A stretch of 64,000 bases of DNA from an uncultured beta proteobacterium (GTDB lineage Bacteria > Pseudomonadota > Gammaproteobacteria > Burkholderiales > Burkholderiaceae): contig CAVTXZ010000011.1 of the NCBI GenBank assembly GCA_963738755.1, positions 39,841-103,840 of the forward strand, written 5' to 3'. Shown one piece after another: positions 16,876 through 31,765 of this stretch (the stretch's first letter is position 1; the number at the start of each line of letters is the position of its first letter). The notes under the pieces are model-generated. The model was not told where the DNA came from. It saw only the letters and a list, made by a program, of their open reading frames with translations, and made no database searches. The position numbers and the translations under genes are program-made.

Positions 16876-17662
16876 ATGGACTTAGGTATCAAGAATCGCG
16901 TTGCGCTTGTCATGTCAGCCGGTGGTGGACTCGGCTCAGCTATCGCCCTGGCGCTCGCTCGCGAAGGCGCGACGGTCGCCGTGTCGGATCAGAATCGCGA
17001 AGCACTGGAAGACACCGTATCGCGCATTCGCGCGGCTGGAGGCGAGGCCTACGGCTTCCAGGCCGACCTGGCCGACCTGGAAAGCATCACTGCCATGGTC
17101 GCGGATGTCAGAAGCACGCTGGGCGACCCGCAAATCCTGATCAACAATTCCGGCGGACCGCCCCCTTCGCCGGCCTGCAGGTGTGGCAGCGGAACAGTGG
17201 CGAAAGCAATTTGACGCGATGGTTCTGTCACTGATGCATCTCACTGACCTGCTGTTGCCCGCGATGAAACAGGAAGGTTGGGGGCGCATCGTCACGAGCG
17301 CTTCCTCCGGCGTGGTCGCACCCATACCCAACCTCGGCATGTCCAATGCGTTGCGCCTCGCCTTGTTGGGCTGGTCGAAGACATTGGCCAATGAGGTCGC
17401 TGCCGATGGCATCTGCGTCAACGTCGTTCTGCCAGGACGAATCGCGACGGACCGCATCCGTTCACTGGACGAGGCACGTGCAAGCCGCGAAGGCAAGACC
17501 TACGAGGAAGTCGTTGCCGCGAGCACGGCGTCGATACCGGTCGGGCGCTATGGCAAACCCGACGAATATGCTGACGCAGTGGCATTCCTCGCCAGCGAGC
17601 GCGCGGCTTTCATAACGGGCTCCGTTATACGCGTCGACGGCGGCATGATCCCCAGTATTTAA
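16876..17662 (+). CDS. Short-chain dehydrogenase/reductase (SDR); +1 frameshift near 17175
   Basis: MDLGIKNRVALVMSAGGGLG, LINNSGGPPP, then SNALRLAL, VNVVLPGRIATDR and ITGSVIRVDGG. Confidence 0.88.
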
Positions 17663-17684: not shown

Positions 17685-18384
17685 ATGATGGAAACAATTC
17701 CTGTAGTGCGAAGCGCAGCGGATCGCGAGGCCATTCGCCAACGATTTTTGTTAGTGGACACATCCAACGTCGCCGACGTGCTCGACACGCTCGGTTTGTT
17801 CCACCAGGGACTCTCGTCGGTCCTTGTCCCCTATCCTGCTTCGTGCAGCAAGCTGGCAGGCTGGGCATATACGATTCGCGGTCAGATGTCTCCGTATCGA
17901 ACTCGGCGGCGACCCGGACAAGATGAAAGCCTGCGCAGGGGTGTCGACAGGCGATGTCACGGTCTGGAGCGGCGACGGGGAAGGTGTCTGCTATTTCGGC
18001 GAACTCATCGCCATTGGAATGAAAGAGCGAGGCTGCGTGGGATCGCTAGTCGACGGCGGCATTCGCGACATTCGCTGGATTGCCGACCAGGATTTTCCGG
18101 TGTTCGCGCGCTATCGCACTCCAGTGCAATCCATTGCGCGCTGGAAGGTCAATGGCTGGCAAGTGCCAGTGAGCATCCGTGGCGCGACCTCTCAATGGGT
18201 AACAGTACGCCCCGGCGACTTCGTGCTCGGTGATGAAGATGGTGTCCTGGTCATTCCAGACGAAGTGGTCGAGACGGTGCTGGTCGAAGCAGAACGCTTA
18301 ACGGAGAAGGAAAGGCTCATCCGTATCGATTTGCAACAAGGGCTTAGTCTGGCTGAGGCATTGGCGAAGTACGGGCATGTCTGA
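17685..18384 (+). CDS. RraA family protein / putative HMG-CHA aldolase; +1 frameshift near 17898
   Basis: DTSNVADVLD, G.AYT, FGE-X20-RD and VRPGDFVLGDEDGVLVIP. Confidence 0.85.
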
Positions 18385-18546: not shown

Positions 18547-19626
18547 CTAGAAATAGTGACGCAGCCCGATTGCCGCGACGCCCTGCGCGGAACTCGAACT
18601 GGGCGACATTCCGAATATTTGTGCAGGGCGGCCACCCGTCGCATGCTGGAAGACGTAAGTCACGTAAATGTCTGTGGCCTTGCTGAGTCTGTAGTCGTAG
18701 ACCACGCCATATGTGCTTCGGATACTCGCGTAGAAAACGTTTTTTGCACCGTTGTTTTTGTCGAGGTACGTGTATTCCACTCCGGCAACCTGGAACGGTG
18801 TGATGTTGTATCGCACACCGACATCAAAGATGCTGGCAACGTCGCCGGTCAGCGTCCATCGCGAGTTGGTATAGAGCGCATTGACGATAAAGTCGCCCAG
18901 AGACGTCGTGCCGCCTACACCCAGCGTACGCAACGTCCCTGGTGTCAGATTGTCCTTCCGGATCGTGTAAACAGCGCCCACTAGCGTCCCGGTCGTCGTC
19001 CACGTCGCTCCATAGCTTTGCGTGCTATTAGGCGAGCCGATTCCCGGCGCGTCGCCGAATCCGTACATCGCGCCAAAGCTCAATGACTTCACAGGACTCC
19101 ACGTTGCCTTCACTGAGCTATCGACTTCACCTCCCCCAATGCGATCGAGCGAGGGATTGCTGCCGTTGTTGCCAAAGAAGTTGGCGTTGATTGCCGGGTG
19201 GAACTCTAGCGATGTACCGTACCAGGAGTTCGCGGTAGTCTGCAGGTAGTCCAGCATGAAGTCCGGCTGCCTGCCGAATAACACCTGCACCTTATCGTTG
19301 GCCAGTCCGACGTAAGCGTAACGACCGAAGATCCGCTGCGCAGTCGACGTGCTCTGGCCGAGCACCCCGTTGTTCAGCGAGAATCCGCTTTCAAGCCGGA
19401 ATACCGCCTTGAGGCCTCCGCCAAGATCCTCACGGCCCTGGAGGCCCCATCGGTCTCCGCGCATCATGCTGCTGGCCTCCTGCACACTATGGTGCCCACC
19501 CTGATTGGTGGTGTATTGAATCCCAACGTCAAGGATTCCATATAATGTGACGGAACTCTGAGCGTGCGCAATGGGTGTAGCCGATACGACGACGCCTGCA
19601 GCAACCGGATAGAGCCATGACTTCAT
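18547..19626 (-). CDS. Gram-negative trimeric porin (Burkholderia OmpC/OpcP type)
   Basis: AHAQSSVTLYG, RWGLQGREDLGGG, YRLSKAT and C-terminal GLRHYF. Confidence 0.93.
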   Translation of the reverse strand: MKSWLYPVAAGVVVSATPIAHAQSSVTLYGILDVGIQYTTNQGGHHSVQEASSMMRGDRWGLQGREDLGGGLKAVFRLESGFSLNNGVLGQSTSTAQRIFGRYAYVGLANDKVQVLFGRQPDFMLDYLQTTANSWYGTSLEFHPAINANFFGNNGSNPSLDRIGGGEVDSSVKATWSPVKSLSFGAMYGFGDAPGIGSPNSTQSYGATWTTTGTLVGAVYTIRKDNLTPGTLRTLGVGGTTSLGDFIVNALYTNSRWTLTGDVASIFDVGVRYNITPFQVAGVEYTYLDKNNGAKNVFYASIRSTYGVVYDYRLSKATDIYVTYVFQHATGGRPAQIFGMSPSSSSAQGVAAIGLRHYF

Positions 19627-19908: not shown

Positions 19909-20796
19909 CTACACCTTTTCGCTGTTGAAGTGCCTGGCCAGAAAATCCACGAATGACCGTACTTTTGGAGAGAGAGTGCGGTGCCGTGGAAAGACCGCAT
20001 TGATCTCCCGCTCGCCTCTTTCCCAATCCAGCATGACCCGTACCAATCTGCCCTCTGCAATGTCTTGATGACACAGATAGTCGGGCAACCAGGCCAATCC
20101 CGACCCTGCCAACAGGACGGTCCGAAGCGTACTCGTGTCATTGGCAAAGAAACGCGGATGCACGGCAATAGAAGACGACTCTTCGCCTCGACGCAAACGC
20201 CACTCGCACGGGCCGTCGGCAATATCTAGGAGAAAATGGGCCGGAAGGTCGGCCGGCGACTCCGGCGTGCCGCTTTTGCGCAGATAGGCAGGCGTGGAAA
20301 CCAGCACCAGCCTGGCGCTCCCCAGTCTTTTCGCAATCAACCTGGAATCCTCCAGCGCGCCCGTTCGAATGACGACATCCATTTCGTCCGTGAGCGGTTC
20401 CATCTTGCTGCTGGTGAGTTCCAGGGACACCTGGACGTCTGGATAGGTAGCGAGATATTCGGGGACAAGCGGCGCAATCATGAACTGCCCGGGCGTGACC
20501 GGCGAGCTGACTCGCAGAAGCCCCCGCGGAGTCAGTCGCACCTGCCCGACCTTTTCCTCCGCTTCTTCTACCTCGTCGAGTATCTTCTTTGCAGACTCCG
20601 CAAACAGCAGGCCGGTATCGGTCAACGCCACCTTGCGATTGGACCGGATAATCAATGCTACGCCCAGATGCTCTTCAAGCCGCGTAAGAGACCGGCTGAC
20701 CGAAGACTTGGGCATCGCCAGCACCCGCGCTACTGAACTAAAGCTCATCAACTCGGAAAGCTTCGAAAATACGCGAATGTCGATGAGTTCAATCAT
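19909..20796 (-). CDS. LysR family regulator (CrgA/DmlR-like)
   Basis: SFSSVARVLAMPKSSVSRSLTRLEEHLG, PRGLLRVS and SPKVRSFVDFL. Confidence 0.93.
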   Translation of the reverse strand: MIELIDIRVFSKLSELMSFSSVARVLAMPKSSVSRSLTRLEEHLGVALIIRSNRKVALTDTGLLFAESAKKILDEVEEAEEKVGQVRLTPRGLLRVSSPVTPGQFMIAPLVPEYLATYPDVQVSLELTSSKMEPLTDEMDVVIRTGALEDSRLIAKRLGSARLVLVSTPAYLRKSGTPESPADLPAHFLLDIADGPCEWRLRRGEESSSIAVHPRFFANDTSTLRTVLLAGSGLAWLPDYLCHQDIAEGRLVRVMLDWERGEREINAVFPRHRTLSPKVRSFVDFLARHFNSEKV

Positions 20797-20830
20797 ATGT
20801 TTCCGGATGCTCGACCGTTGATGCCGACGG

Positions 20831-20847
20831 TGTTCCCGATTGAAACA
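20831..20847. promoter_or_regulatory. Candidate LysR box TGTTCCCGATTGAAACA
   Basis: T-N11-A core within an imperfect dyad about 35 bp upstream of the LysR start. Confidence 0.4.
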
Positions 20848-20984
20848 AAATTCTTTCCAGTCGGCAAACTGCAGCTCCATAGATACGTAATGGTTTTGTA
20901 ACGCCGACAATAACATCTGTCAAACCGGTATTTCCAGCACGCTTTGGCGCACAGCGCCGCCCTTGCCTCTGCGTTTTCGCTTAC

Positions 20985-21012
20985 CGCCGTGTTCCCAACC
21001 GGGAACACGGCG
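20985..21012. repeat. Perfect 12-bp inverted repeat CGCCGTGTTCCC-aacc-GGGAACACGGCG
   Basis: Read directly; followed by TTTC on the + strand; lies upstream of the flavin reductase. Confidence 0.7.
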
Positions 21013-21115
21013 TTTCAGGTATGCGCCTTGATATCGACGCAGGCCAGTGCAACGATAGGACCTAACTTGCGCATACCGGTGCGCGCTCCCCGAAACCCTA
21101 TCCACGAGGTCAGCG

Positions 21116-21634
21116 TTGAAGATCGATCCCGAAGAATTCCGCAAAGGACTCCGAGCCTTCACAACCGGCGTCACAGTCGTTTCAATGCCAGACGACCAGG
21201 GCCGCATGCACGCGATGACAGCAAGTTCATTTGCGGCTGTTTCACTCGATCCGCAACTGGTAGCCGTCAGCATTGCGAAGACTGCGAAATCGCATGCGTT
21301 TCTATCGACTGACAACTACTACGCTATCAATATCCTGGCTGAAGACCAGGGCTTTCATGGCCATTACTTCGCCAACCGCATCCCCGAACGTTGGGATCCC
21401 CCACATGAATGGATCGCGGACACACCTATCCTCACCGGCACGATGGGCTGGTTTATATGCCGCCGCTGGGCCGCATACGAAGGTGGTGACCACACTATTC
21501 TGGTTGGTGAAGTCGTTCAGATTCATCGCACGGATGAACGGCCGCTGGTCTGCAATCGCGGGACGTTCTATTCGTTGGGTCAACCGGTAGAAGCCGTCCA
21601 TCCCGACCTGCAGAGCAATGAGAAATCCGCTTGA
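21116..21634 (+). CDS. Flavin reductase (HpaC/DIM6/NTAB family)
   Basis: FRKGLRAFTTGVTVV, MTASSFAAVSLDP and GGDHTILVGEV; TTG start after GAGG. Confidence 0.92.
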   Translation: MKIDPEEFRKGLRAFTTGVTVVSMPDDQGRMHAMTASSFAAVSLDPQLVAVSIAKTAKSHAFLSTDNYYAINILAEDQGFHGHYFANRIPERWDPPHEWIADTPILTGTMGWFICRRWAAYEGGDHTILVGEVVQIHRTDERPLVCNRGTFYSLGQPVEAVHPDLQSNEKSA

Positions 21635-21680
21635 CACCCGTCAGGCGATTCCATTTACCACGATAAAGCAGACATTCCCC

Positions 21681-21935
21681 ATGACTAACAGGGTTCAGAT
21701 AGTAGACAACGGTCCAATGCAACTGACGGGCGAATTCGAACTTGTCGACGACAATGGGCAGATCGTTCGCACTCGCAAGGTCTACACGTTGTGCCGATGC
21801 GGCCTGTCAACACGGCTACCGTTCTGTGATGCATCGCACGAACGTGCCGGATTCTCGAGTTCTCCCAGAGCACCGCAAAGCGAAGCCGGCTCCGATCCTG
21901 CGCCTGTTTCGAATCCAGGCGCCGTTCCCCAATAA
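21681..21935 (+). CDS. CDGSH iron-sulfur domain protein 1
   Basis: NGP...G lead-in and LCRCGLSTRLPFCDASH, matching C-X-C-X2-S-X3-P-X-C-D-X-S-H. Confidence 0.88.
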   Translation: MTNRVQIVDNGPMQLTGEFELVDDNGQIVRTRKVYTLCRCGLSTRLPFCDASHERAGFSSSPRAPQSEAGSDPAPVSNPGAVPQ

Positions 21936-21957
21936 CCCGTTCCCACCTGACGCTGCC

Positions 21958-22230
21958 ATGTCAATTGTCAAAGGTCACATCATGGACGCCGGCCCGCTTC
22001 ACCTGGTCGGCGAATTCGAAATTATCGACGCACTCGGCAACCGCTTCCCGAACAGTGGCATCTTCAGTCTCTGTCGATGTGGGCACTCGCAGAGCAAACC
22101 CTACTGCGACGGAGAGCATCGGGCGCAGCGATGGTCGGGATGCGCCTCATCTGCGGTACCCGCCGCTGCGCAAACCCAGGCTAGCTCGCCTGCTCCGAAC
22201 CGGCATACGGACGAATCGACGTCACGCTGA
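21958..22230 (+). CDS. CDGSH iron-sulfur domain protein 2
   Basis: AGPLHLVG lead-in and LCRCGHSQSKPYCDGEH. Confidence 0.85.
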   Translation: MSIVKGHIMDAGPLHLVGEFEIIDALGNRFPNSGIFSLCRCGHSQSKPYCDGEHRAQRWSGCASSAVPAAAQTQASSPAPNRHTDESTSR

Positions 22231-22344: not shown

Positions 22345-22381
22345 AAAAGAGGCCAACCTCGCACCCGCAAGATTGGCCTCT
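22345..22381 (-). terminator. Rho-independent terminator of the and operon
   Basis: Stem AGAGGCCAA/TTGGCCTCT is extended by G-U pairs on the minus strand and followed by a short U-run; about 20 bp after the andAa stop. Confidence 0.6.
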
Positions 22382-22400
22382 CGCGAAATACCTCAGACAG

Positions 22401-23609
22401 CTAACGCTTGAGTAGCGAGCGCAGCGAAACGGACGTATCGCCCAGCAGCGTCCTGTCTACCGGACCACCTGCGGCCATTCTCACGAATACAGCCATGTCC
22501 TTGCCACTGTTGACCGTTACCGCGGCCCGCACGCTGCCGGCTTCATCGAGGCCGATCATGCTGAACGCCCCGGCGGAAATCGCGCCGCGCAGGACCATCG
22601 TATGAGTGCCGTCGAAAGTACCGAGCGATTGCACGTTGCAATCGTACTGATCCGACCAGAGCCACGGCATTTCGTTGTAGCGCTCCGCGGCACCCAGCAT
22701 GTTGGCGGCCGCCACAGCCGGCTGCTTCTCCGCGACCTGCCAGGATTCGACACGGATATGCCGCCCGACAGAGCTGACGAAGTGCCGCGTCACCTCGCCC
22801 GCGGCGAAAATGTTCGGGTCGGATGTGCGGCATTCATCATTCACGACGATGCCATCGCTGACCTCGAGTCCCGCCTGCTCGGCCAGTTCCGTGTTGGGAA
22901 TCACGCCGATGCCGGCCACCACCGCGTCCGCGGACAGGTCCCCTTCGCTGGTTGCCACGCGCACCGAACCATCCGCTGCCTGCTGGATATCCGTGACCTG
23001 CACCCCAAGACGAAACTCGACACCGCGGCTCGCATGAAGCTGCCGCATAAACTCGCTGACTTCAGGTGGCATCGAGCGTTTGAGCAAGCGGTCAGCCGGT
23101 TCGATCAGCGTAACGGCGCAGCCTCTGCCGATGGCGGTCGCCGCGACCTCCAGACCAACAAATCCGCCGCCTACGATTACAACTCGCGCCCCCTGTTCGA
23201 GCCGCACTCTCAGATGCCGGGCGTCGTCGAGGGTGCGCAGATAGTGCACGGGTCCGCCGTGCAGCTTGCGAACCCGCGATCCGGTCGCCAGCAGAAGACG
23301 GTCGTACATAAGCTGCGAACCATCGCTCAGGCTGAGCGACCGGTCTGCCCGGTCGATAGCCGTGACTTTCAGGCCAAGTCGCAGTTCAATACGTTGGCTC
23401 TCGTAGTAAGCGGCGTCGCGAATGAACGCATGCCGCTCCCGCTCTTCGTCGAGCAGCGCATCCTTCGAAAGCGACGGCCGGTCATACGGCAGATGCGATT
23501 CGTCGCCAATGATGCAGATGCGTGCGTCGGGCGCGCGCTCGCGCAACACCTCCGCTGCCCTGCGGCCGGCTTGCCCGCCGCCGACGATTACAAGATTCTG
23601 ATTTTTCAT
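22401..23609 (-). CDS. andAa: Anthranilate 1,2-dioxygenase ferredoxin-NAD(+) reductase
   Basis: VGGGQAG, PYDRPSLSK, VGGGFVGLE and PWLWSDQYD; last gene of the operon. Confidence 0.9.
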   Translation of the reverse strand: MKNQNLVIVGGGQAGRRAAEVLRERAPDARICIIGDESHLPYDRPSLSKDALLDEERERHAFIRDAAYYESQRIELRLGLKVTAIDRADRSLSLSDGSQLMYDRLLLATGSRVRKLHGGPVHYLRTLDDARHLRVRLEQGARVVIVGGGFVGLEVAATAIGRGCAVTLIEPADRLLKRSMPPEVSEFMRQLHASRGVEFRLGVQVTDIQQAADGSVRVATSEGDLSADAVVAGIGVIPNTELAEQAGLEVSDGIVVNDECRTSDPNIFAAGEVTRHFVSSVGRHIRVESWQVAEKQPAVAAANMLGAAERYNEMPWLWSDQYDCNVQSLGTFDGTHTMVLRGAISAGAFSMIGLDEAGSVRAAVTVNSGKDMAVFVRMAAGGPVDRTLLGDTSVSLRSLLKR

Positions 23610-23636
23610 AGCCTGGCTCGCGCAGTTGCTCGACTG

Positions 23637-23966
23637 TCAATCCGCTCCGGAACTGCCGATTTCCACCCGCCCGTTGAGTACCCGAATCGGATACGTGCGA
23701 ACGGGTTCGGTAATCGGAGCAGAGCACGGAGTGCCTGTACGCAGGTCGATCAGTCCCTGGTGAAGCGGACATTCGACGCAGCCGTTTTCGACGAAACCTT
23801 CCGACAGCCGCGCATGACCATGCGAACACAGGTCGTGCAGGGCAAACCATTCACCCTCGGCGCGGAACACGGCAACCGGGTGCGCGCCCACCACCACCTG
23901 CGCCGGTTCGTCCTCCACGAAGTCATGCTCCGCGCCCACGTCGAGCCACTGGATCAATTCGGACAT
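23637..23966 (-). CDS. andAb: Anthranilate dioxygenase Rieske ferredoxin
   Basis: Rieske ligands CSH...VECPLH. Confidence 0.9.
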   Translation of the reverse strand: MSELIQWLDVGAEHDFVEDEPAQVVVGAHPVAVFRAEGEWFALHDLCSHGHARLSEGFVENGCVECPLHQGLIDLRTGTPCSAPITEPVRTYPIRVLNGRVEIGSSGAD

Positions 23967-23978
23967 TCGAGCCTCCCG

Positions 23979-24455
23979 TCAAATCGGCGTGGCGAGCAGC
24001 GTCTGCACTCGCGACGTGTCGTAAATCACGCGCTTTTCCGCGTAGCGCCAGCCGTCCGGTGTCCGAACTACGCGATCGAGATAGCGGCCCGCCTGGTAGA
24101 TGAACGACTCGCCGCTCGTCAATGTCTGAACCACGACGTAGCTGCTCTCCGTGCGCACTTCATTCGCGGACTGTTCGACGACCGTCAAGCCCGAGGTCAT
24201 ATGGCGGTACGCGTGCTCCTCGAAGATGTTTGCGTTACGCAGCGACACGATCCGATCGCGCAACATGCGCTGGTTCGTGCAGTGAATGATGCCGATCGGC
24301 AAACCGGCGTCCTCGTTCTCGCGGGGAACGATTTCATACAGGCAGTCCTCCACGAAAAAATCCGGCCAGGCTTCGAGCCGGTCGTTATCCAGCGCGTTCA
24401 CATAGCGGCTCTGCAGCATGTGAAGGTCAAACCACAGTTGTGTTTCCTGCTCCAT
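23979..24455 (-). CDS. andAd: Anthranilate dioxygenase small (beta) subunit
   Basis: LDNDRLEAWPDFF, MLRDRI and YDTSRVQTLLATPI; RBS before MEQETQ. Confidence 0.9.
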   Translation of the reverse strand: MEQETQLWFDLHMLQSRYVNALDNDRLEAWPDFFVEDCLYEIVPRENEDAGLPIGIIHCTNQRMLRDRIVSLRNANIFEEHAYRHMTSGLTVVEQSANEVRTESSYVVVQTLTSGESFIYQAGRYLDRVVRTPDGWRYAEKRVIYDTSRVQTLLATPI

Positions 24456-24473
24456 CTCTCCCTCCTGCTTCAT

Positions 24474-25745
24474 TCAATAACCCATGAGCTTCTGATAGCC
24501 GACCCAGAACTTGCGGATCAGACTTTCCGTAATCACCGTGTCCTGCTGGTCCGGATTTCCGCGCGACATCTCGATGACCGACGTCGCATCGGCGTCCCGT
24601 ACGGTGCCTTGCTGCACGAGTTCCGTGGCCTCCGTGTCTTCCATCGAGATGTACCCGGCCGGCCCCACGAGGTTGGCCTGCTTGATGCGCAGAGCGCGCA
24701 TTTCCGGCGTGTCGTCCGTATAGCCGAAGAAGTGGAAAATCAGTTCGAAGCTGTCCGGGCCCTTCGCCAGCAATTGACGGGCAACCAGCGTGTTGTGAAT
24801 CTGCTGGATCACCAGTTGCGGGAAAATCGGCTGGATGTGATTGGTCGTGTCCTCTTCGTATTCGGAGACGAGTGCCAGGATCGAGTCGTCTTCCAGCGAA
24901 AAGCCTTCGTCGAACGAGCGAATGTTCTGTTGCTTGTATGCGCTCGACGTGTCTTCGCCCGTTTTCGTCACGGTAATGATGCTGTGCAGGCCATGATTTG
25001 CGTCTGGAATCGAGCGCGCCTTCATGCCCACCCGGAAGATGTTGAAGGTGGTGTGAAAGAGGTGCAGCATGCTCGCGTGGTACGGATCCTTCACGTTCTC
25101 CATATAGAGCTTCCAGTTCGACTTGGAGAACTGGCGCGTACAACCAAGATATTCGATGGGCTTATGGAAGATCCTGTCGATCCACGGGCGCATTTCATTG
25201 CCGAGGTATTCCGGCAACGGAACCACTTCTTCGCTGAAGGTGGCGAATACGAGGCCGCGATAAGTCTCCACGCGCAATTGCTTCAGGCTATGCGCCTTCG
25301 GATCGAAATCCGCAGGCATGCCCGTCATGCCTTTTTGCCCGCGGCGAAACGGTACGCCCAGCAGATTGCCGGCGTTGTCGAAGCTCCACTGATGGTAGAC
25401 GCAGGTGTGCGACGTTGCATTGCCGCGCGACTTGCGGCAAACCATCGCGCCGCGGTGCGCACAACGGTTGACCCATGCCGCCACCGCGCCGTCTTCCATC
25501 CGCGTGACCACTACCGGCGTATCGCCGACGAACGTGCTCTTGTAGTCGCCGGGGTTCGGAATCTCAGCTTCAAGCGCCACGAAATTCCATGTGGGGCCAC
25601 GGAAAATCTTTGCCTGCTCCCGCTCGAACACCGCTTGCGAGCTGAACACCTTGTACGGGACGCGCGAGCCGTCCTGGCGCGGGAATTTGACGAAATCATC
25701 CAGTTCGCTGGCTGGACGCAGCGGTACTTCAGTCGTTTGCATCAT
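24474..25745 (-). CDS. andAc: Anthranilate dioxygenase large (alpha) subunit, three-component Burkholderia type
   Basis: Rieske CAHRG...CVYH and mononuclear iron motif NWKLYMENVKDPYHASMLH; closely resembles Burkholderia AndAc as recalled, ending FWVGYQKLMGY. Confidence 0.92.
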   Translation of the reverse strand: MMQTTEVPLRPASELDDFVKFPRQDGSRVPYKVFSSQAVFEREQAKIFRGPTWNFVALEAEIPNPGDYKSTFVGDTPVVVTRMEDGAVAAWVNRCAHRGAMVCRKSRGNATSHTCVYHQWSFDNAGNLLGVPFRRGQKGMTGMPADFDPKAHSLKQLRVETYRGLVFATFSEEVVPLPEYLGNEMRPWIDRIFHKPIEYLGCTRQFSKSNWKLYMENVKDPYHASMLHLFHTTFNIFRVGMKARSIPDANHGLHSIITVTKTGEDTSSAYKQQNIRSFDEGFSLEDDSILALVSEYEEDTTNHIQPIFPQLVIQQIHNTLVARQLLAKGPDSFELIFHFFGYTDDTPEMRALRIKQANLVGPAGYISMEDTEATELVQQGTVRDADATSVIEMSRGNPDQQDTVITESLIRKFWVGYQKLMGY

Positions 25746-25944
25746 GCTCCTCCGTCTTTGGAATATCACAGTGGAGCCATGCTGACGCCGTCAAAAAGCA
25801 TTCGCTATCCACTTTCCGCCGAAACCGGAAGCACTATCCAGTTTCGGCACGTTTCGTGGTCAGGATGGGACCGGATACCGCCGCGGCGATTTTTAGGTCA
25901 CACTTGCACACTGGATCACAGCAGCACCCACACATCGGTTAGCC

Positions 25945-26904
25945 ATGGCCACGTCTCCGTTTAGCGCACAAGCCTTGCGCGAATACAGGCTCTTCGAATC
26001 CACTGATCTCGATGAAGCGCGCGAGCGTATCTCCCGCGTGATGCAGCCTCACCTGCTCGTGCCCTCAGGCGCAAAAGCGGGCATCTCCCATATGGACTTC
26101 GTCAGGCTCGGCGGGGTCGGAATCGGCACGATTGCATTCGGAAATGCGATGCGCGTGGATGTGGAGGCGGTCGCCGGCTATCACCTGCTGATGTTTTGCG
26201 TCACCGGCCAGGCGCGCGTGCGCACGAGAGGGCAAACGGTCTGCGTGGATCAGTCGAACGCAGTTCTGTGCGCGGCGGGGGAGCCGTTCGACGCGGTGCT
26301 TTCACCGGATTGCGAGCAGTTCATTCTGCGTATCGACACCAGTTTGCCTGGCGCTCAGGCATGCGCCACGCGCTTCGGCCCCGGCTCGCATCTGCACATC
26401 GACACTCCCGCGCTTGGAGGCTGGATGCAGCAACTTAATCTGATTGCCAATTCACCGGCGCTGCTCGAGCTTGCTGGACATAACGACGCCATTGGGGGGC
26501 AACTCGGCCGCCTTCTGCTCGAGTTGCTGACGTCAGGTCACGTGAGGGCCACGCCCGAGACCAGCCGCCGGACGGCGGCGCCAGGTGTCATCAAGCGGGC
26601 CGAGGATTTCATGCATGAACATTGCGGAGAAGTCTTGCGACTGCCTGATATGGCGACGGCGCTGGGGCTCGCCGAACGCACACTGCGCGACGGCTTCCAG
26701 CAGTTCCGGGGCGTGAGCCCCACGCAATACCTGCGGCAGATCCGCCTCGACAAGGCGTACAAGATTCTTAGTGAAGCGACAGAGGGTGTCTATGTGTCGG
26801 ACGTCGCCATGAATTGCGGCTTCATGCACCTCGGGCGCTTTTCGATCGAGTACAAGAAGCGGTTCGGAGAATCGCCGTCCGAGACACTGGCGCGGCGCAT
26901 GTGA
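25945..26904 (+). CDS. andR: AraC family regulator of the and operon
   Basis: FESTDLDEARERISRVMQPH N-terminal domain and GFMHLGRFSIEYKKRFGESPSETL; divergent from andAc. Confidence 0.88.
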   Translation: MATSPFSAQALREYRLFESTDLDEARERISRVMQPHLLVPSGAKAGISHMDFVRLGGVGIGTIAFGNAMRVDVEAVAGYHLLMFCVTGQARVRTRGQTVCVDQSNAVLCAAGEPFDAVLSPDCEQFILRIDTSLPGAQACATRFGPGSHLHIDTPALGGWMQQLNLIANSPALLELAGHNDAIGGQLGRLLLELLTSGHVRATPETSRRTAAPGVIKRAEDFMHEHCGEVLRLPDMATALGLAERTLRDGFQQFRGVSPTQYLRQIRLDKAYKILSEATEGVYVSDVAMNCGFMHLGRFSIEYKKRFGESPSETLARRM

Positions 26905-26924: not shown

Positions 26925-27290
26925 TTACGCCGCCTTCTGCTTACGAATGCGCGGTGGATCGTAAATACTGAGCAGCATCAGCCAGCCTTTGCCCGTGTTG
27001 CGGATCGCATGCACCACCCCCCGCGGAATCCGCACGACCGTCCCTGCCCTCACTGCATGACACCTGTCGGCGATGTCGATTTCGCCTTCACCGTCCAGGA
27101 TATAAAACGCATGGTTATCCTGATCAATATGGAGCGGCGAATATCCACCAGGCGCAACCTTCGCAATATCGATGTTGTAGGCGTCGGTGTATTCGGTCCC
27201 CAGGATGTTAAAGATGAATTCGTAGCCCTTCGATCCCTCGATCTGATGCGATCGCCATGGCGTATCGAAAGTGTGGGTGATGTGATTCAT
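26925..27290 (-). CDS. Cupin domain protein
   Basis: PGGYSPLHID..HAFYILDGEG and IPRGVVHAIRNTG. Confidence 0.85.
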   Translation of the reverse strand: MNHITHTFDTPWRSHQIEGSKGYEFIFNILGTEYTDAYNIDIAKVAPGGYSPLHIDQDNHAFYILDGEGEIDIADRCHAVRAGTVVRIPRGVVHAIRNTGKGWLMLLSIYDPPRIRKQKAA

Positions 27291-27339
27291 ATCGGTCGTC
27301 TCTGGTTGATGGCGGCGCCTTGCAACTGCCGCCGGATGT

Positions 27340-28569
27340 TCAAGTGCCGGCGTGCTCTTTCACAAACATCATGCAGATCGCGCCCAGCAGCGGACCCAAC
27401 GCGAGTGTGGCGAACGCCGCCTGGAACGAATGACTCGCCTGAAATACAAGACCTACCACAGCCGGCGACACCGCCGACCCCGACTGCCAGACCGCGTTTG
27501 CGATACCGGCGGCAGAGCCGGCCCGGTTGATGCCGCTTTGCTCCGCAGCCAACGTCACCAGCAGCGGGCTATAAACGAATGCGCCGATGCCGACGAACGG
27601 AGCCGCGAGACGAAATGCATTGAGCTCGGAGAGCTGCCCAAACATCAGCAGGGCGACAAAGAAGAACATCAAGGAAGCGACCGTCAACGCCTTGCGGCGT
27701 CCGCCCAGTCTGTCGGAGAGCCAGCCAACCGACGGTTTGCTGATCAGCCCTGCAATACCCGCGATCGCAACAATGAAGCCTGCCTGCACGGGAGCAATGT
27801 GATGTCCCTTTACCATGAGCGAAATCGCCCATGACGCAAATCCGAGCGTGCCCCAGAACCCGCCGCAGCCGGCGAGCGAGAGCAAAACGAAGTTGCGGTT
27901 GAGCAGCGTACTCACACGCGATTTCTCCGGCATGCGTTCCGACAATTGCGCACCGGTAGGGACGAACTGGTTGCGAAGGATCACCGCGGTCAGAATTGAC
28001 AGAATCAGCGCACAAACTCCCAGGCCGTGATAGGTGTTACGCCAACCAAGGTTTGTCGCGACGCCAGGCAGAACCGCGCTGGTCACAATGACCGCGATGG
28101 AAGATGCGCTCATCAGCAGGCCGACGGCTCGTCCGCGCTCATGCCTCGCGAACCACGTCGAGACGAGCTTCACCCCGGCCGCGTAGTCCGCACCCGCGGT
28201 GAGTCCCATGATGCATTGCAATACGAGCCCCACGGCTAATGACGGGGTGTAACCAAAACAGAACGTCGCGACTGCGAGGCCAAGCAGCGAGACTGACAGC
28301 GTCGCGCGGCCACCAATCCGGTCTGTCATGACACCGCCCACGACATTGGAGAGGACGTAGCCCACATAAAACGCGGTCACAAAAACACCGAGCGCTGCGA
28401 TGGGTAGCCCGAGTGACTGTCCAGCGGGAAGTGCGAGCGTGCCCCACGCGAGGCGGCAGACCGTGCTGAGCATGAGCCCGGCCCACGCAAAAAACAGAAT
28501 CGCCCAACGGAATCTCGCGACTTTTGCATCGTCACTACAGTCCGTTGGTGTCGAAATGGCCGCTTGCAT
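27340..28569 (-). CDS. MFS transporter
   Basis: About 12 hydrophobic segments; motif A GVMTDRIGGR and GWLSDRLGGRR. Confidence 0.92.
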   Translation of the reverse strand: MQAAISTPTDCSDDAKVARFRWAILFFAWAGLMLSTVCRLAWGTLALPAGQSLGLPIAALGVFVTAFYVGYVLSNVVGGVMTDRIGGRATLSVSLLGLAVATFCFGYTPSLAVGLVLQCIMGLTAGADYAAGVKLVSTWFARHERGRAVGLLMSASSIAVIVTSAVLPGVATNLGWRNTYHGLGVCALILSILTAVILRNQFVPTGAQLSERMPEKSRVSTLLNRNFVLLSLAGCGGFWGTLGFASWAISLMVKGHHIAPVQAGFIVAIAGIAGLISKPSVGWLSDRLGGRRKALTVASLMFFFVALLMFGQLSELNAFRLAAPFVGIGAFVYSPLLVTLAAEQSGINRAGSAAGIANAVWQSGSAVSPAVVGLVFQASHSFQAAFATLALGPLLGAICMMFVKEHAGT

Positions 28570-28924
28570 ACTGTCTCCTCGCTACGATTGTCCGCGCGCT
28601 GCTGCGATCTGGAATAGCGCCTATGATCGTGCGAAAATCCGGAGAACAAAATTCATCTACTGCAAAACCATGTTCCCGCTGCGGAACGATGCGGAGTAAC
28701 ACCGCGCTGACCCGATCCGCTTTCGGTTTCGGTTTCGCGCATTGATTTCGAAACCGCCGGGAGTGGGTTCAGCGTATCATTTCGTGAGTAGCGCGTAGGC
28801 CCCCGTCGCGCCCGGCAAGCGGTCCGGGCGTCGCTTGGGCGGCGCGCCCGCCGAGGTCCGACTGGCTGAACCGCGATCACATCCTCCATGGAATCCATGG
28901 TGCCCCAGCGCTGGGTCGAGCCAT

Positions 28925-28942
28925 ATCCCCCTTGCCGGGGAG
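28925..28942. promoter_or_regulatory. Palindrome ATCCCC-N6-GGGGAG upstream of the MalT-like regulator
   Basis: Same architecture as 38541-38558. Confidence 0.45.
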
Positions 28943-28999
28943 CACGATCGCAGCAACCGGGGATGCAGCGAGGGACAACCCGAACACCCGGAGCAGCTG

Positions 29000-31765
29000 A
29001 TGCATGTACCCGAAGCAACGGCCCTCAGGAGGGCGCCTCTCGTTCTCGCCACCAAGGTGTTTCCGCCGCGCCTGCCCCGTGGATTGATCGATCGGCCGCG
29101 GCTCGCCAGTCTTGCCGGCCAGGTCGAAGACAGGCGGCTCACTGTCATCAAGGCACCCGCCGGTTTCGGCAAGACCTCGCTCGCGCTCACGTGGCTCAAC
29201 CGGCTGCGCACGGGCGGTGCGCAGGTTGCATGGCTCTCGCTCGACATCGACGACGACGAGCCGGCGCGCTTCTTCCAACATCTGGCGCAGGCGCTGAACA
29301 ACGCCTGCGCCAAGGTCGGCGCCTCGACCATCGGCCTGACGGCGGAGGCATCGCTGGTTCCCCCTCACCTCGTGGTGTCCACGCTGATCAACGAGCTGGT
29401 CGACGTGGAAGACGATGTCTATCTGTTCCTCGACGACTATCACCTGATCAGCCTTCCGTCGATTCACGAGGCGATGTCGTTCTTCATCGCGAATGCGCCG
29501 TCGCATGTGCATGTGGTGGTCTGCACGCGCTCGGATCCCGCACTGCCGCTCGCGCGACTGAGAGCACAAAACGATCTGCTGGAAGTCGATGCGTCGACGC
29601 TGCGTTTTAACTTCGACGAAACGCGCAGCTTCGTCGAGCATGAATACCCCGGCAAGCTGCGCGCCGCGTGCCTCAAGTCGCTGTTCGCCAGCACCGAAGG
29701 ATGGGCCGCGGCATTGCGCATTTCCGCATCGGTGTTATTGAGCGAGGGCGACAAGCCCGGCTCGGCGCCGGCCGCGCCGTCGGGTGCGTCGCGGCCGTTC
29801 GCTGCTTACCTGGAGGACATGCTCGAACGCCTGCCGCCCGAGATGGTCGACCTTCATGCTGCGCACCTCGATACTCGACCGGCTCACGGCGTCGCTGTGC
29901 GAGGCCGTCACGGGGTTCGCGGCAAGCCAGAGCATGCTGGAGACGATCGTCGCGCGGCAGTTGCTGCTCGAGCCGATGGATCTGGAAGGACACTGGTTCC
30001 GCTATCACCATCTGATGGGCGAGTACCTGCGCCAGCGGCTGGAGACGCAGCATCGCGACGAAGTGGCCGACGTGCATCGGCGCGCGTGCCAATGGTATGC
30101 ACAGCACGAACAGTGGACCGACGCCGTCAGGCACGCGATCGCCGCGGGCGCCACCGACGAAGCGATCTCGCTGATGGGACACTGCGCGATGGCACTCGTC
30201 AGGAAGGGCGATCTGATCACGCTGCTTGGCTGGCAACGCCAGTTTCCGGCGCATCTCATGCGCGGCCAACTCAAGGTCACGCTCGCGATCGCGTGGGGCA
30301 TGGCGCTCGCGATCCGCTTAGACGACGCGCTCGCGATGCTCGATGCGATCGAACGCGATGCGCACAGCCCATGCGCGACCCCGACGGCATCCGCTGGGAA
30401 TGTCAGGTGATCCGCTCGGTGGTGGCCGCGCTGCAGGACGATCCGCAACGGGCGCTCGCGATCGCGCAGCCGTGCCTCGAACGGCCGTCGCACCGATGTC
30501 TGGACCACCAACGTCCGCTTCCAACGTCGTGCGTTTCGGACATTGGAAAGCGGGCAACCTCGAAGCGCTCTACGCGACGCCGTGGATCCCCTATTCGATC
30601 GAGGAGGACCAGCGCAACGTCTTCGCTTCGGTCTACCGGCTTTGCCTGCTCGGCCACGCGGAAATGCAGCAGATGCACTTTGCGCTCGCCGAGCGCTATT
30701 TCACCGAGGCGATGCAGCTCGGCCGAGCATCATTCCGGTCCGCACTCCATCTCCGCTGCGTTGTGCGCGCCGATGATCGCGCAGATCCGCTACGAGCAAG
30801 GCCGGCTCGACGAGGCCGAAGCCATGCTGGTCGATCTCATGCCGGTCATCGATCTGGCGGTCTTGCTCGATAGCGTGCTGATCGCCTACCGGCTGCTGAT
30901 CCGGATCGCCGTCGCGCGTTCGGACTACCGTGCAGGCCTACGCGCTGCTCGATCAGGCGCCAGGCGCTCGGCTCATGCGCGCCGCTGGAACCGGCTGATT
31001 GCGGGCGGTCTCGTCGAACGAACGCGGCTCTATCTGGCGGAAGGACAGAATCGCGGAAGCGGCGGCATGTGTCGCGCAACTGGAGCAGCTTGCGACACCC
31101 GGCGGCGCGACTGCGCAGGCCGTCTCGCCGGAGATCGAAAACTATCGCGCGCTCGCGGCTGCCTGTGTCGCGATGGCCCAGAAGCGCACACACGACGCCG
31201 TCGAGATCGTTGACAGCCGCGTTGCGAAGCGCCGAAAGCCGGCATGGGGATTATCTCGCGCTACGCTTTCGCACCGTGCTCGCGCTCGTCTGGCTGCGGG
31301 CGAACGAACGCGAGCGCGCCGTCGAGATCTTTCGCGAGGTCCTGGAAGAAGCCGCCGCCGTGGGCATCTACCAGTCGATTCTCGACCAGGGTCCTGAAAT
31401 CGGCGACGCTACTGCAGGCGGTTCGCGACAGACACCCGCGACACCGCGCAGACGAAGAGACCTGCTGGCTTACATCGATCGCCTGCTCGATGGCTGGCGC
31501 GCGCTGTACCAGCCCGACAGCCAACCCCAGCGCGACGCCGAACGCGAATCGCTGAGCGCACGGGAGCGCGAGATCGTCGAGTTGATCGCGCAAGGGCAGT
31601 CGAACAAGGAAATCGCGCGCACCCTCGGGATCGCGCCCGAGACCGTCAAGTCCCATGTGAAGAGCATCTTCGTCGAAGCTGGCGGTCGACAAACGCGCGC
31701 ATGCTGTTTCGCGCGCGCAGGCGCTGGGACTGGTGCGCACGGCTAGCAGCCCGCGGCACCGTTAG
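29000..31765 (+). CDS. MalT/AlkS-like large ATP-binding LuxR regulator; multiple frameshifts; ends approximate
   Basis: TKVFPP, Walker A APAGFGKTS, WLSLD, LFLDDYH, WFRYHHL and LuxR HTH LSAREREIVELIAQGQSNKEIARTLGIAPETVKSHVKSIF, spread across several frames. Confidence 0.88.

Follow-up and report, generated by a model that had tools for sequence, protein, structure and literature searches.

To our knowledge, no physiological role has been assigned to bacterial CDGSH (NEET-like) proteins, which are widespread and for which structures are known. RsCISD of Ralstonia solanacearum (3TBM) carries a single CDGSH motif after a β-strand/proline region; it is a homodimer encoded by a single gene, and its function is not known (PMC3174974). 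The [2Fe-2S] clusters of human mitoNEET can be reduced in vitro by a flavin reductase and FMNH2 (PMC9490426, and earlier work from that group). A third point of comparison is provided by the three-component aromatic oxygenases, of which AndAa-AndAb-AndAcAd is an example, in which a flavoprotein that oxidizes NAD(P)H is encoded together with a small carrier of [2Fe-2S] type and a catalytic subunit that contains metal, under a dedicated regulator and with a link to uptake genes. The present analysis concerns a 64,000-nucleotide (nt) stretch of DNA from an uncultured beta proteobacterium (assembly GCA_963738755.1, contig CAVTXZ010000011.1, positions 39,841 to 103,840), hereafter the window, in which genes for a short-chain flavin reductase, two CDGSH proteins, a small cupin and a transporter are found. 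It is very likely that these components constitute one functional unit. The reductase-CDGSH-cupin module is new as far as literature searches reach: nothing was found that joins CDGSH and anthranilate, a search on CDGSH, flavin reductase and bacteria yielded no paper about a bacterial operon, and one on CDGSH, cupin and Burkholderiaceae gave nothing relevant among the best 15 matches listed.

The core of the module is an operon of three genes. The first (21116–21634, + strand) encodes the flavin reductase, a protein of 172 amino acids (aa) with a Flavin_Reduct match (PF01613, 7.4e-33) over residues 13–154; its TTG start codon is preceded by a GAGG ribosome-binding site. The reductase is 88–92% identical to those of Paraburkholderia dipogonis, P. 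sediminicola and P. fungorum, and the host of the window is a soil Paraburkholderia. Two genes for type-4 CISD proteins follow after gaps of 46 and 22 nt, CDGSH1 (21681–21935, +, 84 aa) and CDGSH2 (21958–22230, +, 90 aa), whose limits were set by orthologues. Each gives a zf-CDGSH match (PF09360; 1e-15 and 8e-15, respectively) in its own reading frame, and these are the only CDGSH matches in the whole 7.05-Mb genome. Divergent from the operon is a gene for a LysR-type regulator (19909–20796, −, 295 aa; Pfam HTH_1 and LysR_substrate), an orientation shared by its orthologues in 19 loci; the frame used in the Pfam scan was 19909–20916 (−), and the start was moved to 20796 on the basis of orthologues and an alignment (A5). 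The sole strong hairpin of the operon in a terminator scan (22347–22382, 16-bp stem) lies 3′ of CDGSH2, facing the convergent andAa gene, and is probably a bidirectional terminator. A second hairpin (21628–21647) was flagged as terminator-like, and was rejected because it lacks a T-run.

Farther along the window is a second operon, encoded on the opposite strand, that begins with a major facilitator superfamily (MFS) transporter gene (27340–28569, −, 409 aa; PF07690) and continues with a small Cupin_2 gene (26925–27290, −, 121 aa; PF07883, 5e-16). The transporter is anion:cation symporter-like, with a 2A0114-type NCBIfam similarity whose score is under the cut-off, and the MFS-cupin pair is kept in loci L040–L050, L056 and L073. 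The original prediction had described the reductase and CDGSH genes as a three-gene unit under LysR control without a partner monooxygenase. Pfam confirms that the three genes and the divergent lysR gene are real, and the missing monooxygenase holds as far as that claim goes, in that no two-component flavin monooxygenase lies within ~10 kb; what was overlooked is the cupin and MFS transporter (26925–28569), which share with the three genes both an operator and a pattern of presence and absence.

The reductase, CDGSH2 and the cupin are each present in the identical 12 of 213 Paraburkholderia genomes, on the same contig and a few kilobases apart, and none of them occurs in the other 201. A species-level scan, with one genome per species, returned 23 loci, and in 21 of these, from Burkholderiaceae to Caulobacteraceae and Bacilli, a CDGSH gene follows the reductase gene; the exceptions are Bradyrhizobium altum, where the context is different, and one relative at only 30% identity. 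The linkage is thus strongly conserved, and the original prediction withstands the objection, raised with it, that the genes might not be linked in other genomes. CDGSH also lies within the reductase operon in all seven assembly contexts examined (Trinickia mobilis, Cupriavidus oxalaticus, a Caulobacteraceae metagenome-assembled genome (MAG), Pusillimonas noertemannii, a soil MAG, a JGI contig and Bacillus sp. sid0103). A Cupin_2 gene is located within 10 kb in 19 of the 21 reductase-CDGSH loci, the remaining two being short contigs. In Bacilli and alphaproteobacteria, the gene order is reductase-cupin-CDGSH, and in Pusillimonas and the soil MAG it is porin-reductase-cupin-binding protein-cupin-ABC-permease-CDGSH. 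The search for shared neighborhoods and fusions suggested by the original prediction was therefore borne out with respect to the former, which recur, and not the latter: among CDGSH2 relatives longer than 110 aa there is no reductase::CDGSH or cupin::CDGSH fusion, only longer calls of the same protein, which is weak evidence.

The two operons in the window also appear to be tied together by a common operator. A dyad of the form GTTCC-N6-GGAAC, GTTCCCAACCGGGAAC, resides at 20991–21006, 110 nt before the reductase start; it contains T-N11-A and precedes a putative sigma-70-like promoter of the reductase operon (−35 TTGATA, 21028–21033; −10 AACGAT, 21051–21056). The same dyad, GTTCCCGCTGCGGAAC, recurs at 28672–28687, 103 nt before the MFS start codon. 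The 64-kb window thus has two exact copies of the dyad, one ahead of each operon, where 0.07 would be expected. In alignment A5, the half-sites do not vary among Paraburkholderia, Trinickia and Cupriavidus, and the two-site layout is seen in every long Burkholderiaceae locus, with the second dyad placed ahead of MFS-cupin or, for most Cupriavidus, of porin-bicupin-TctC. Genome-wide, the dyad count is at chance level (11 vs 10 for the reversed control), and therefore only these two sites, and no further regulon members, are claimed. A divergent regulator gene, combined with T-N11-A dyads ahead of the promoters that it would control, is the arrangement of a LysR-type regulon, and the conserved operator supports the LysR control that had been proposed. 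The predicted regulon comprises two transcription units, reductase-CDGSH1-CDGSH2 and MFS-cupin. Beside operator 2 is a 792-aa open reading frame (ORF; 28835–31213) with faint AAA_22/AAA_16 similarity, possibly a STAND-type ATPase or a regulator.

Similar comparisons can be drawn for each component of the module. The reductase is a member of the Flavin_Reduct family, its split-barrel domain extending over the whole length of the protein, and its homologues form a tight clade (50–92% identity). PheA2 (1rz0) is the nearest solved structure, and other relatives in the PDB include 5cho and 5zc2. HpaC, PheA2 and StyB reductases share its fold family and supply the nearest sequences with solved structures. 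The module reductase differs from them in falling under every equivalog cut-off, since all NCBIfam scores for HpaC, PheA2, StyB and HsaB are far too low (110 vs 340, 107 vs 200), and in having no monooxygenase partner in proteobacterial loci: neither the ~10 kb around it in the window nor the other proteobacterial loci contain an oxygenase of the HpaB, luciferase-like or acyl-CoA-dehydrogenase type.

Both CDGSH proteins have the features of type 4, namely a single motif, three Cys and one His ligand, an N-terminal proline/β region and PF09360 scores above the cut-off. CDGSH1 has the predicted ligands C38, C40, C49 and H53 in a CxCx2Sx3PxCDASH motif and ends in a Pro/Ala/Ser-rich tail; those of CDGSH2 are C39, C41, C50 and H54, with the motif CDGEH. 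Relative to the type-4 definition of Lin et al. (2011), C-X-C-X2-(S/T)-X3-P-X-C-D-G-(S/A/T)-H, the departures are G to A in CDGSH1 and S to E in CDGSH2. None of the Cys3His ligands varies among the 14 orthologues compared for each paralogue, and their conservation predicts a [2Fe-2S] cluster in each protein. The best PDB match of both is RsCISD (2e-10 for CDGSH2), covering the N-terminal strands and the motif. RsCISD is similar in size to the module proteins, which unlike it are two diverged tandem paralogues (CDASH and CDG[AE]H) in a defined operon. In a tree, the module CDGSHs form a group of their own (support for the CDGSH2 clade, 100/98), apart from the RsCISD-like single proteins of other Paraburkholderia and from fused 2xCDGSH proteins, and the pair is a Burkholderiaceae duplication of a gene that is single elsewhere. 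Because tandem paralogues are encoded here and single-chain 2xCDGSH proteins exist in other Burkholderiales, CDGSH1 and CDGSH2 probably form a heterodimer with two [2Fe-2S] clusters. The notion that the pair is a split two-domain gene was rejected: the fused proteins are on another branch and in another context, and 14 of 14 Burkholderiaceae loci have separate genes. The fused type-4 2xCDGSH proteins themselves, with units ~79 residues apart, are found in other Burkholderiales families (L023:6611-7066; L024:928-1413), in a conserved FtsX permease-CrtC-like lipocalin-SDR context unrelated to the module. Several other Paraburkholderia (L025–L031) have a single RsCISD-like CDGSH gene (~74 bits to PF09360) without a homologue of this reductase within ~6 kb.

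The small cupin is the proposed site of catalysis within the module. It belongs to Cupin_2, with an exact motif 2 (G-X5-P-X-G-X2-H-X3-N) and a motif 1 that reads H-x-D-x3-H instead of H-x-H-x3-E; the motif positions are conserved in at least 90% of the sequences of alignment A2. The predicted metal ligands are H54, D56 and H60 from motif 1 and H94 from motif 2. An AF2 model gives a β-barrel (pLDDT 87.7), for which Foldseek returned generic small metal cupins only (DddK, TM1459, RemF, KdgF), and with respect to function the PDB sequence search and the ESM Atlas search likewise gave generic cupins only. The subfamily is narrow, with seven representative clusters at E ≤ 1e-30 in 1.84 billion proteins searched. 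In Cupriavidus, a bicupin of the same family (L033:1969-2745; also L052, L054–L056) is encoded between a porin and a TctC binding protein, with the second LysR dyad ahead of it; its N-terminal half is degenerate and its C-terminal half intact. The intact and degenerate halves are two separate genes in Pusillimonas.

The next-nearest relatives of this cupin are uncharacterized fusion proteins, in which Cupin_2 is joined to an FNR-like NAD-binding domain and a plant-type [2Fe-2S] Fer2 domain (P0122), or to Fer2 (P0128). One such fusion is encoded in the host genome itself (contig 16, L065), and its cupin domain is 41% identical to that of the module over 116 aa, ligand positions included. The fusion of FNR-like and Fer2 domains to these relatives implies that this branch of cupins receives electrons from NAD(P)H. 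The fusions resemble the module in their cupin signature and ligand positions, and in the joining of a flavin reductase and a [2Fe-2S] domain to the cupin; they differ in that the reductase and Fe-S parts are of unrelated families and are fused, and in that their regulator is of an HTH_17::citrate-synthase-like type. In the module, a separately encoded flavin reductase and [2Fe-2S] protein, unrelated to those of the fusions, would fill the same two reductase places, which points to a chain running from NAD(P)H through flavin and a [2Fe-2S] cluster to the cupin. The host fusion gene (contig 16; L068:6843-11064, L065:547-2049) is followed after 46 nt by antABC, which has the same orientation, and is divergent from an HTH_17::citrate-synthase-like regulator gene. 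Cupin::Fer2 and Cupin::FNR::Fer2 genes are regularly divergent from such a regulator, a MerR-like HTH_17 domain combined with a citrate-synthase-like part (L070/L071:5592-7774; L069:586-4315), an odd architecture.

The genomic surroundings of the module suggest where its product may go. Between its two transcription units is a block (22401–26904) that consists of andAa, andAb, andAd and andAc (22401–25769, −) and andR (25945–26904, +; NCBIfam NF041682–NF041686). AndAb, AndAd, AndAc and AndR score above the NCBIfam cut-offs and AndAa just under (588 vs 650); the block is a genuine and-type anthranilate 1,2-dioxygenase cluster with its AndR, a neighbor that lies outside the regulon. Its placement with respect to the module varies in other Paraburkholderia, where at least three arrangements are seen. 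An open frame of 1120 aa antisense to the and operon (22602–25964), without a family match, is most likely a high-GC artefact. Genes for and-type dioxygenases are found beside the module in 12 species loci. In P. ginsengiterrae and one MAG locus (L043), the neighbor is instead antABC-catBCA, whose ant genes are above the NCBIfam cut-offs, and in Neobacillus the module is accompanied by an HpaB-type monooxygenase, a second reductase and DmpFG-like meta-cleavage genes. The module of Bacillus sp. sid0103 is adjacent to 3-hydroxyanthranilate dioxygenase (3-HAO)/ACMSD/YjgF-like genes and a second reductase. We take the context in Bacilli to resemble the Geobacillus route from anthranilate to 3-hydroxyanthranilate. 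Three unrelated first enzymes (and-, ant- and HpaB-type) with one common substrate thus link the module to anthranilate itself rather than to AndAb. Furthermore, 18 of 28 Paraburkholderia genomes with a true AndAc lack the module, so the dioxygenase does not need it. Because of this independence, the uptake genes and the separate regulator, a feeder step that converts an imported compound to anthranilate is favored. Hints to the substrate from NMT1-type and TctC-type binding proteins were sought, and gave distant matches only.

These features would be accommodated by a three-component oxidoreductase whose substrate is an ortho-substituted benzoate taken up from outside and whose product supplies anthranilate catabolism, and we regard that assignment as evenly poised. 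An anionic aromatic substrate would enter through the porin and the MFS transporter, or through ABC or TctC systems elsewhere. The flavin reductase would take electrons from NAD(P)H, the CDGSH pair would serve as its ferredoxin, and the cupin, with its predicted His/Asp/His/His metal site, would be the catalytic end; for this electron chain, too, the chances seem about equal either way. The flavin-to-CDGSH step, which the original prediction had also put forward, is the most economical reading, and is precisely what mitoNEET undergoes in the presence of flavin reductase and NAD(P)H (PMC9490426). There, however, a reductase from E. coli was paired in vitro with a protein from humans, whereas the pair in the module is encoded together and co-inherited, with CDGSH proteins of type 4 and not type 1. 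Three-component aromatic oxygenase chains, such as that of AndA, provide an analogy for the whole, and the likeness is one of logic only: their reductases are of a glutathione-reductase or FNR type, their ferredoxins of a Rieske or plant type, and their oxygenases Rieske α3β3 assemblies, whereas the module would employ Flavin_Reduct, CDGSH and a 121-aa monocupin without a Rieske domain, and so does not belong with Rieske-type oxygenases. The product would most likely enter anthranilate catabolism, and that it is anthranilate itself is a tentative suggestion. We know of no gene for the reduction of 2-hydroxylaminobenzoate to anthranilate. In P. terrae KU-15, 2-hydroxylaminobenzoate is reportedly converted in part to anthranilate, and the and genes are next to the nba genes (PMC9302171). 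Conceivably, then, the reaction could be an N-O reduction of this kind, and oxidative removal of an N- or ortho-substituent is an equally open choice.

Several points weigh against this proposal. The fused relatives are a sister branch (41% identity) and not the module cupin itself, and of the 213 Paraburkholderia genomes 5 encode the fusion at full length, with antABC as its neighbor in only one of the five, the host; the adjacency is not repeated in the other four, and was set aside as an anecdote. The closest folds to the cupin are those of non-redox enzymes (the lyase DddK, KdgF, RemF) or enzymes without a known role, and cupins may be active with no source of electrons. The cupin gene of the window is in a separate operon 4.7 kb from the reductase and CDGSH genes. 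Complex prediction for the cupin with CDGSH1 and CDGSH2 counts in favor of the proposal, but its score is weak: the ipSAE of 0.50 (best control, 0.00) was graded as weak support. Of 80 solved complexes, 58 reach the calibrated mark, as do 2 of 110 mismatched pairs; scores of at most 0.60 include 7 of the 80 solved complexes and both of the passing mismatches. Agreement between runs is at least 97% of contacts, with a partner pLDDT of at least 85. Four long loci have no anthranilate oxygenase within 10 kb. Finally, the N-O reduction is a guess, and the reductase is not close to the 2-nitrobenzoate nitroreductase NbaA, as 4Z85 is absent among the 20 PDB sequences at E ≤ 0.001; the two have only their fold family in common (PMC12363795).

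Other explanations account for part of the same evidence. The cupin could be an Fe(II) dioxygenase or a lyase with no net need for electrons, the reductase and CDGSH proteins serving only to bring its metal back to the reduced state when it is oxidized by accident. Aromatic operons are known to include electron carriers for repair alone, as with the ferredoxin XylT, which reactivates catechol 2,3-dioxygenase, and many small cupins are Fe(II) enzymes that operate with no reductase; co-inheritance and the common operator would fit such a role equally well. Like the CDGSH pair, XylT-type ferredoxins are small [2Fe-2S] proteins of an aromatic catabolic cluster that serve a non-haem-iron enzyme, but XylT is of the plant type, acts on a vicinal-oxygen-chelate dioxygenase and is not known to be encoded alongside a reductase of its own. 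Moreover, repair would be a costly reason to maintain two dedicated proteins (three, counting the duplicated CDGSH), and the complete FNR and Fer2 reductase fused to relatives of the cupin is more typical of stoichiometric electron use. Reactivation is for us an unlikely purpose of the module. A different beneficiary, the Rieske anthranilate dioxygenase, had been named in the original prediction: the reductase and CDGSH proteins might donate electrons or Fe-S clusters to AndAb/AndAc, or protect them. The and genes do adjoin the module in the window and in the 12 species loci mentioned above, and NEET proteins can transfer clusters (PMC6006223). The and operon, however, has its own reductase and ferredoxin, and the operator is common to the transporter and cupin, not to the and genes. 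With the module also placed beside antABC, which includes its own AntC, and beside an HpaB-type flavoenzyme pathway in Neobacillus, and missing from the 18 AndAc-positive genomes, service to the dioxygenase is decidedly improbable.

It could also be that the reductase belongs to an ordinary two-component system, feeding reduced flavin to a monooxygenase encoded elsewhere while the CDGSH proteins have an unrelated role. This would agree with the PheA2, HpaC and StyB-type reductases that are its nearest solved relatives and with the HpaB-type monooxygenase nearby in Neobacillus. In Bacilli, however, it is the second reductase that is nearer to the HpaB gene, no such monooxygenase is found in any proteobacterial locus, and the presence and absence of the reductase perfectly match those of CDGSH and the cupin, all of which makes the idea very unlikely. 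A role in redox, NO or iron stress, or in ferric reduction, with the cupin and transporter as unrelated passengers, has even less to commend it. The Flavin_Reduct family includes ferric reductases, and FerA has the same fold family; NO binds reduced mitoNEET (PMC9490426); and in one locus a TonB-dependent receptor follows the operon. Against this, no stress regulator or stress gene occurs in any locus, the context is consistently one of aromatic catabolism, and the predicted LysR control involves an operator common to uptake genes. The handling of NO or redox stress that had been entertained for the module accordingly loses ground, there being no NsrR, NorR or hmp context and co-regulation with uptake genes being predicted for the unit.

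Downstream of lysR in the window is a gene for a Porin_4-type porin (18547–19626, −). A porin accompanies the module in most Paraburkholderia loci, occupying the same place in L040–L048 and L073 (81–94% identity), and Porin_4 is also present in locus L063. Beyond the porin are several irregular frames. An SDR gene is split over two that overlap (16876–17214, N half; 17183–17662, C half), which may reflect a frameshift, a pseudogene or an assembly error. An RraA-like/aldolase match covers only profile positions 48–152 (frame 17824–18384), and an ORF at 17685–18233 overlaps it in another frame, possibly as the result of a second frameshift.

Taken together, the combination of Flavin_Reduct, type-4 CDGSH and a monocupin might, on a tentative view, represent an unrecognized class of three-component oxidoreductase, in which CDGSH would be the dedicated ferredoxin and the cupin would convert an ortho-substituted benzoate, such as 2-hydroxylaminobenzoate, to anthranilate. 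If true, this would be the first physiological role for a prokaryotic CDGSH protein. The module offers a natural and genetically tractable system, as P. sediminicola LMG 24238, P. fungorum, Trinickia mobilis and Cupriavidus oxalaticus are culturable, and the electron-carrier hypothesis for CDGSH proteins becomes directly testable where a reductase, CDGSH and a likely acceptor are encoded, regulated and inherited together. It may, in addition, bring to light an enzyme so far missing from the entry to the anthranilate pathway, as well as a novel role for the cupin fold.

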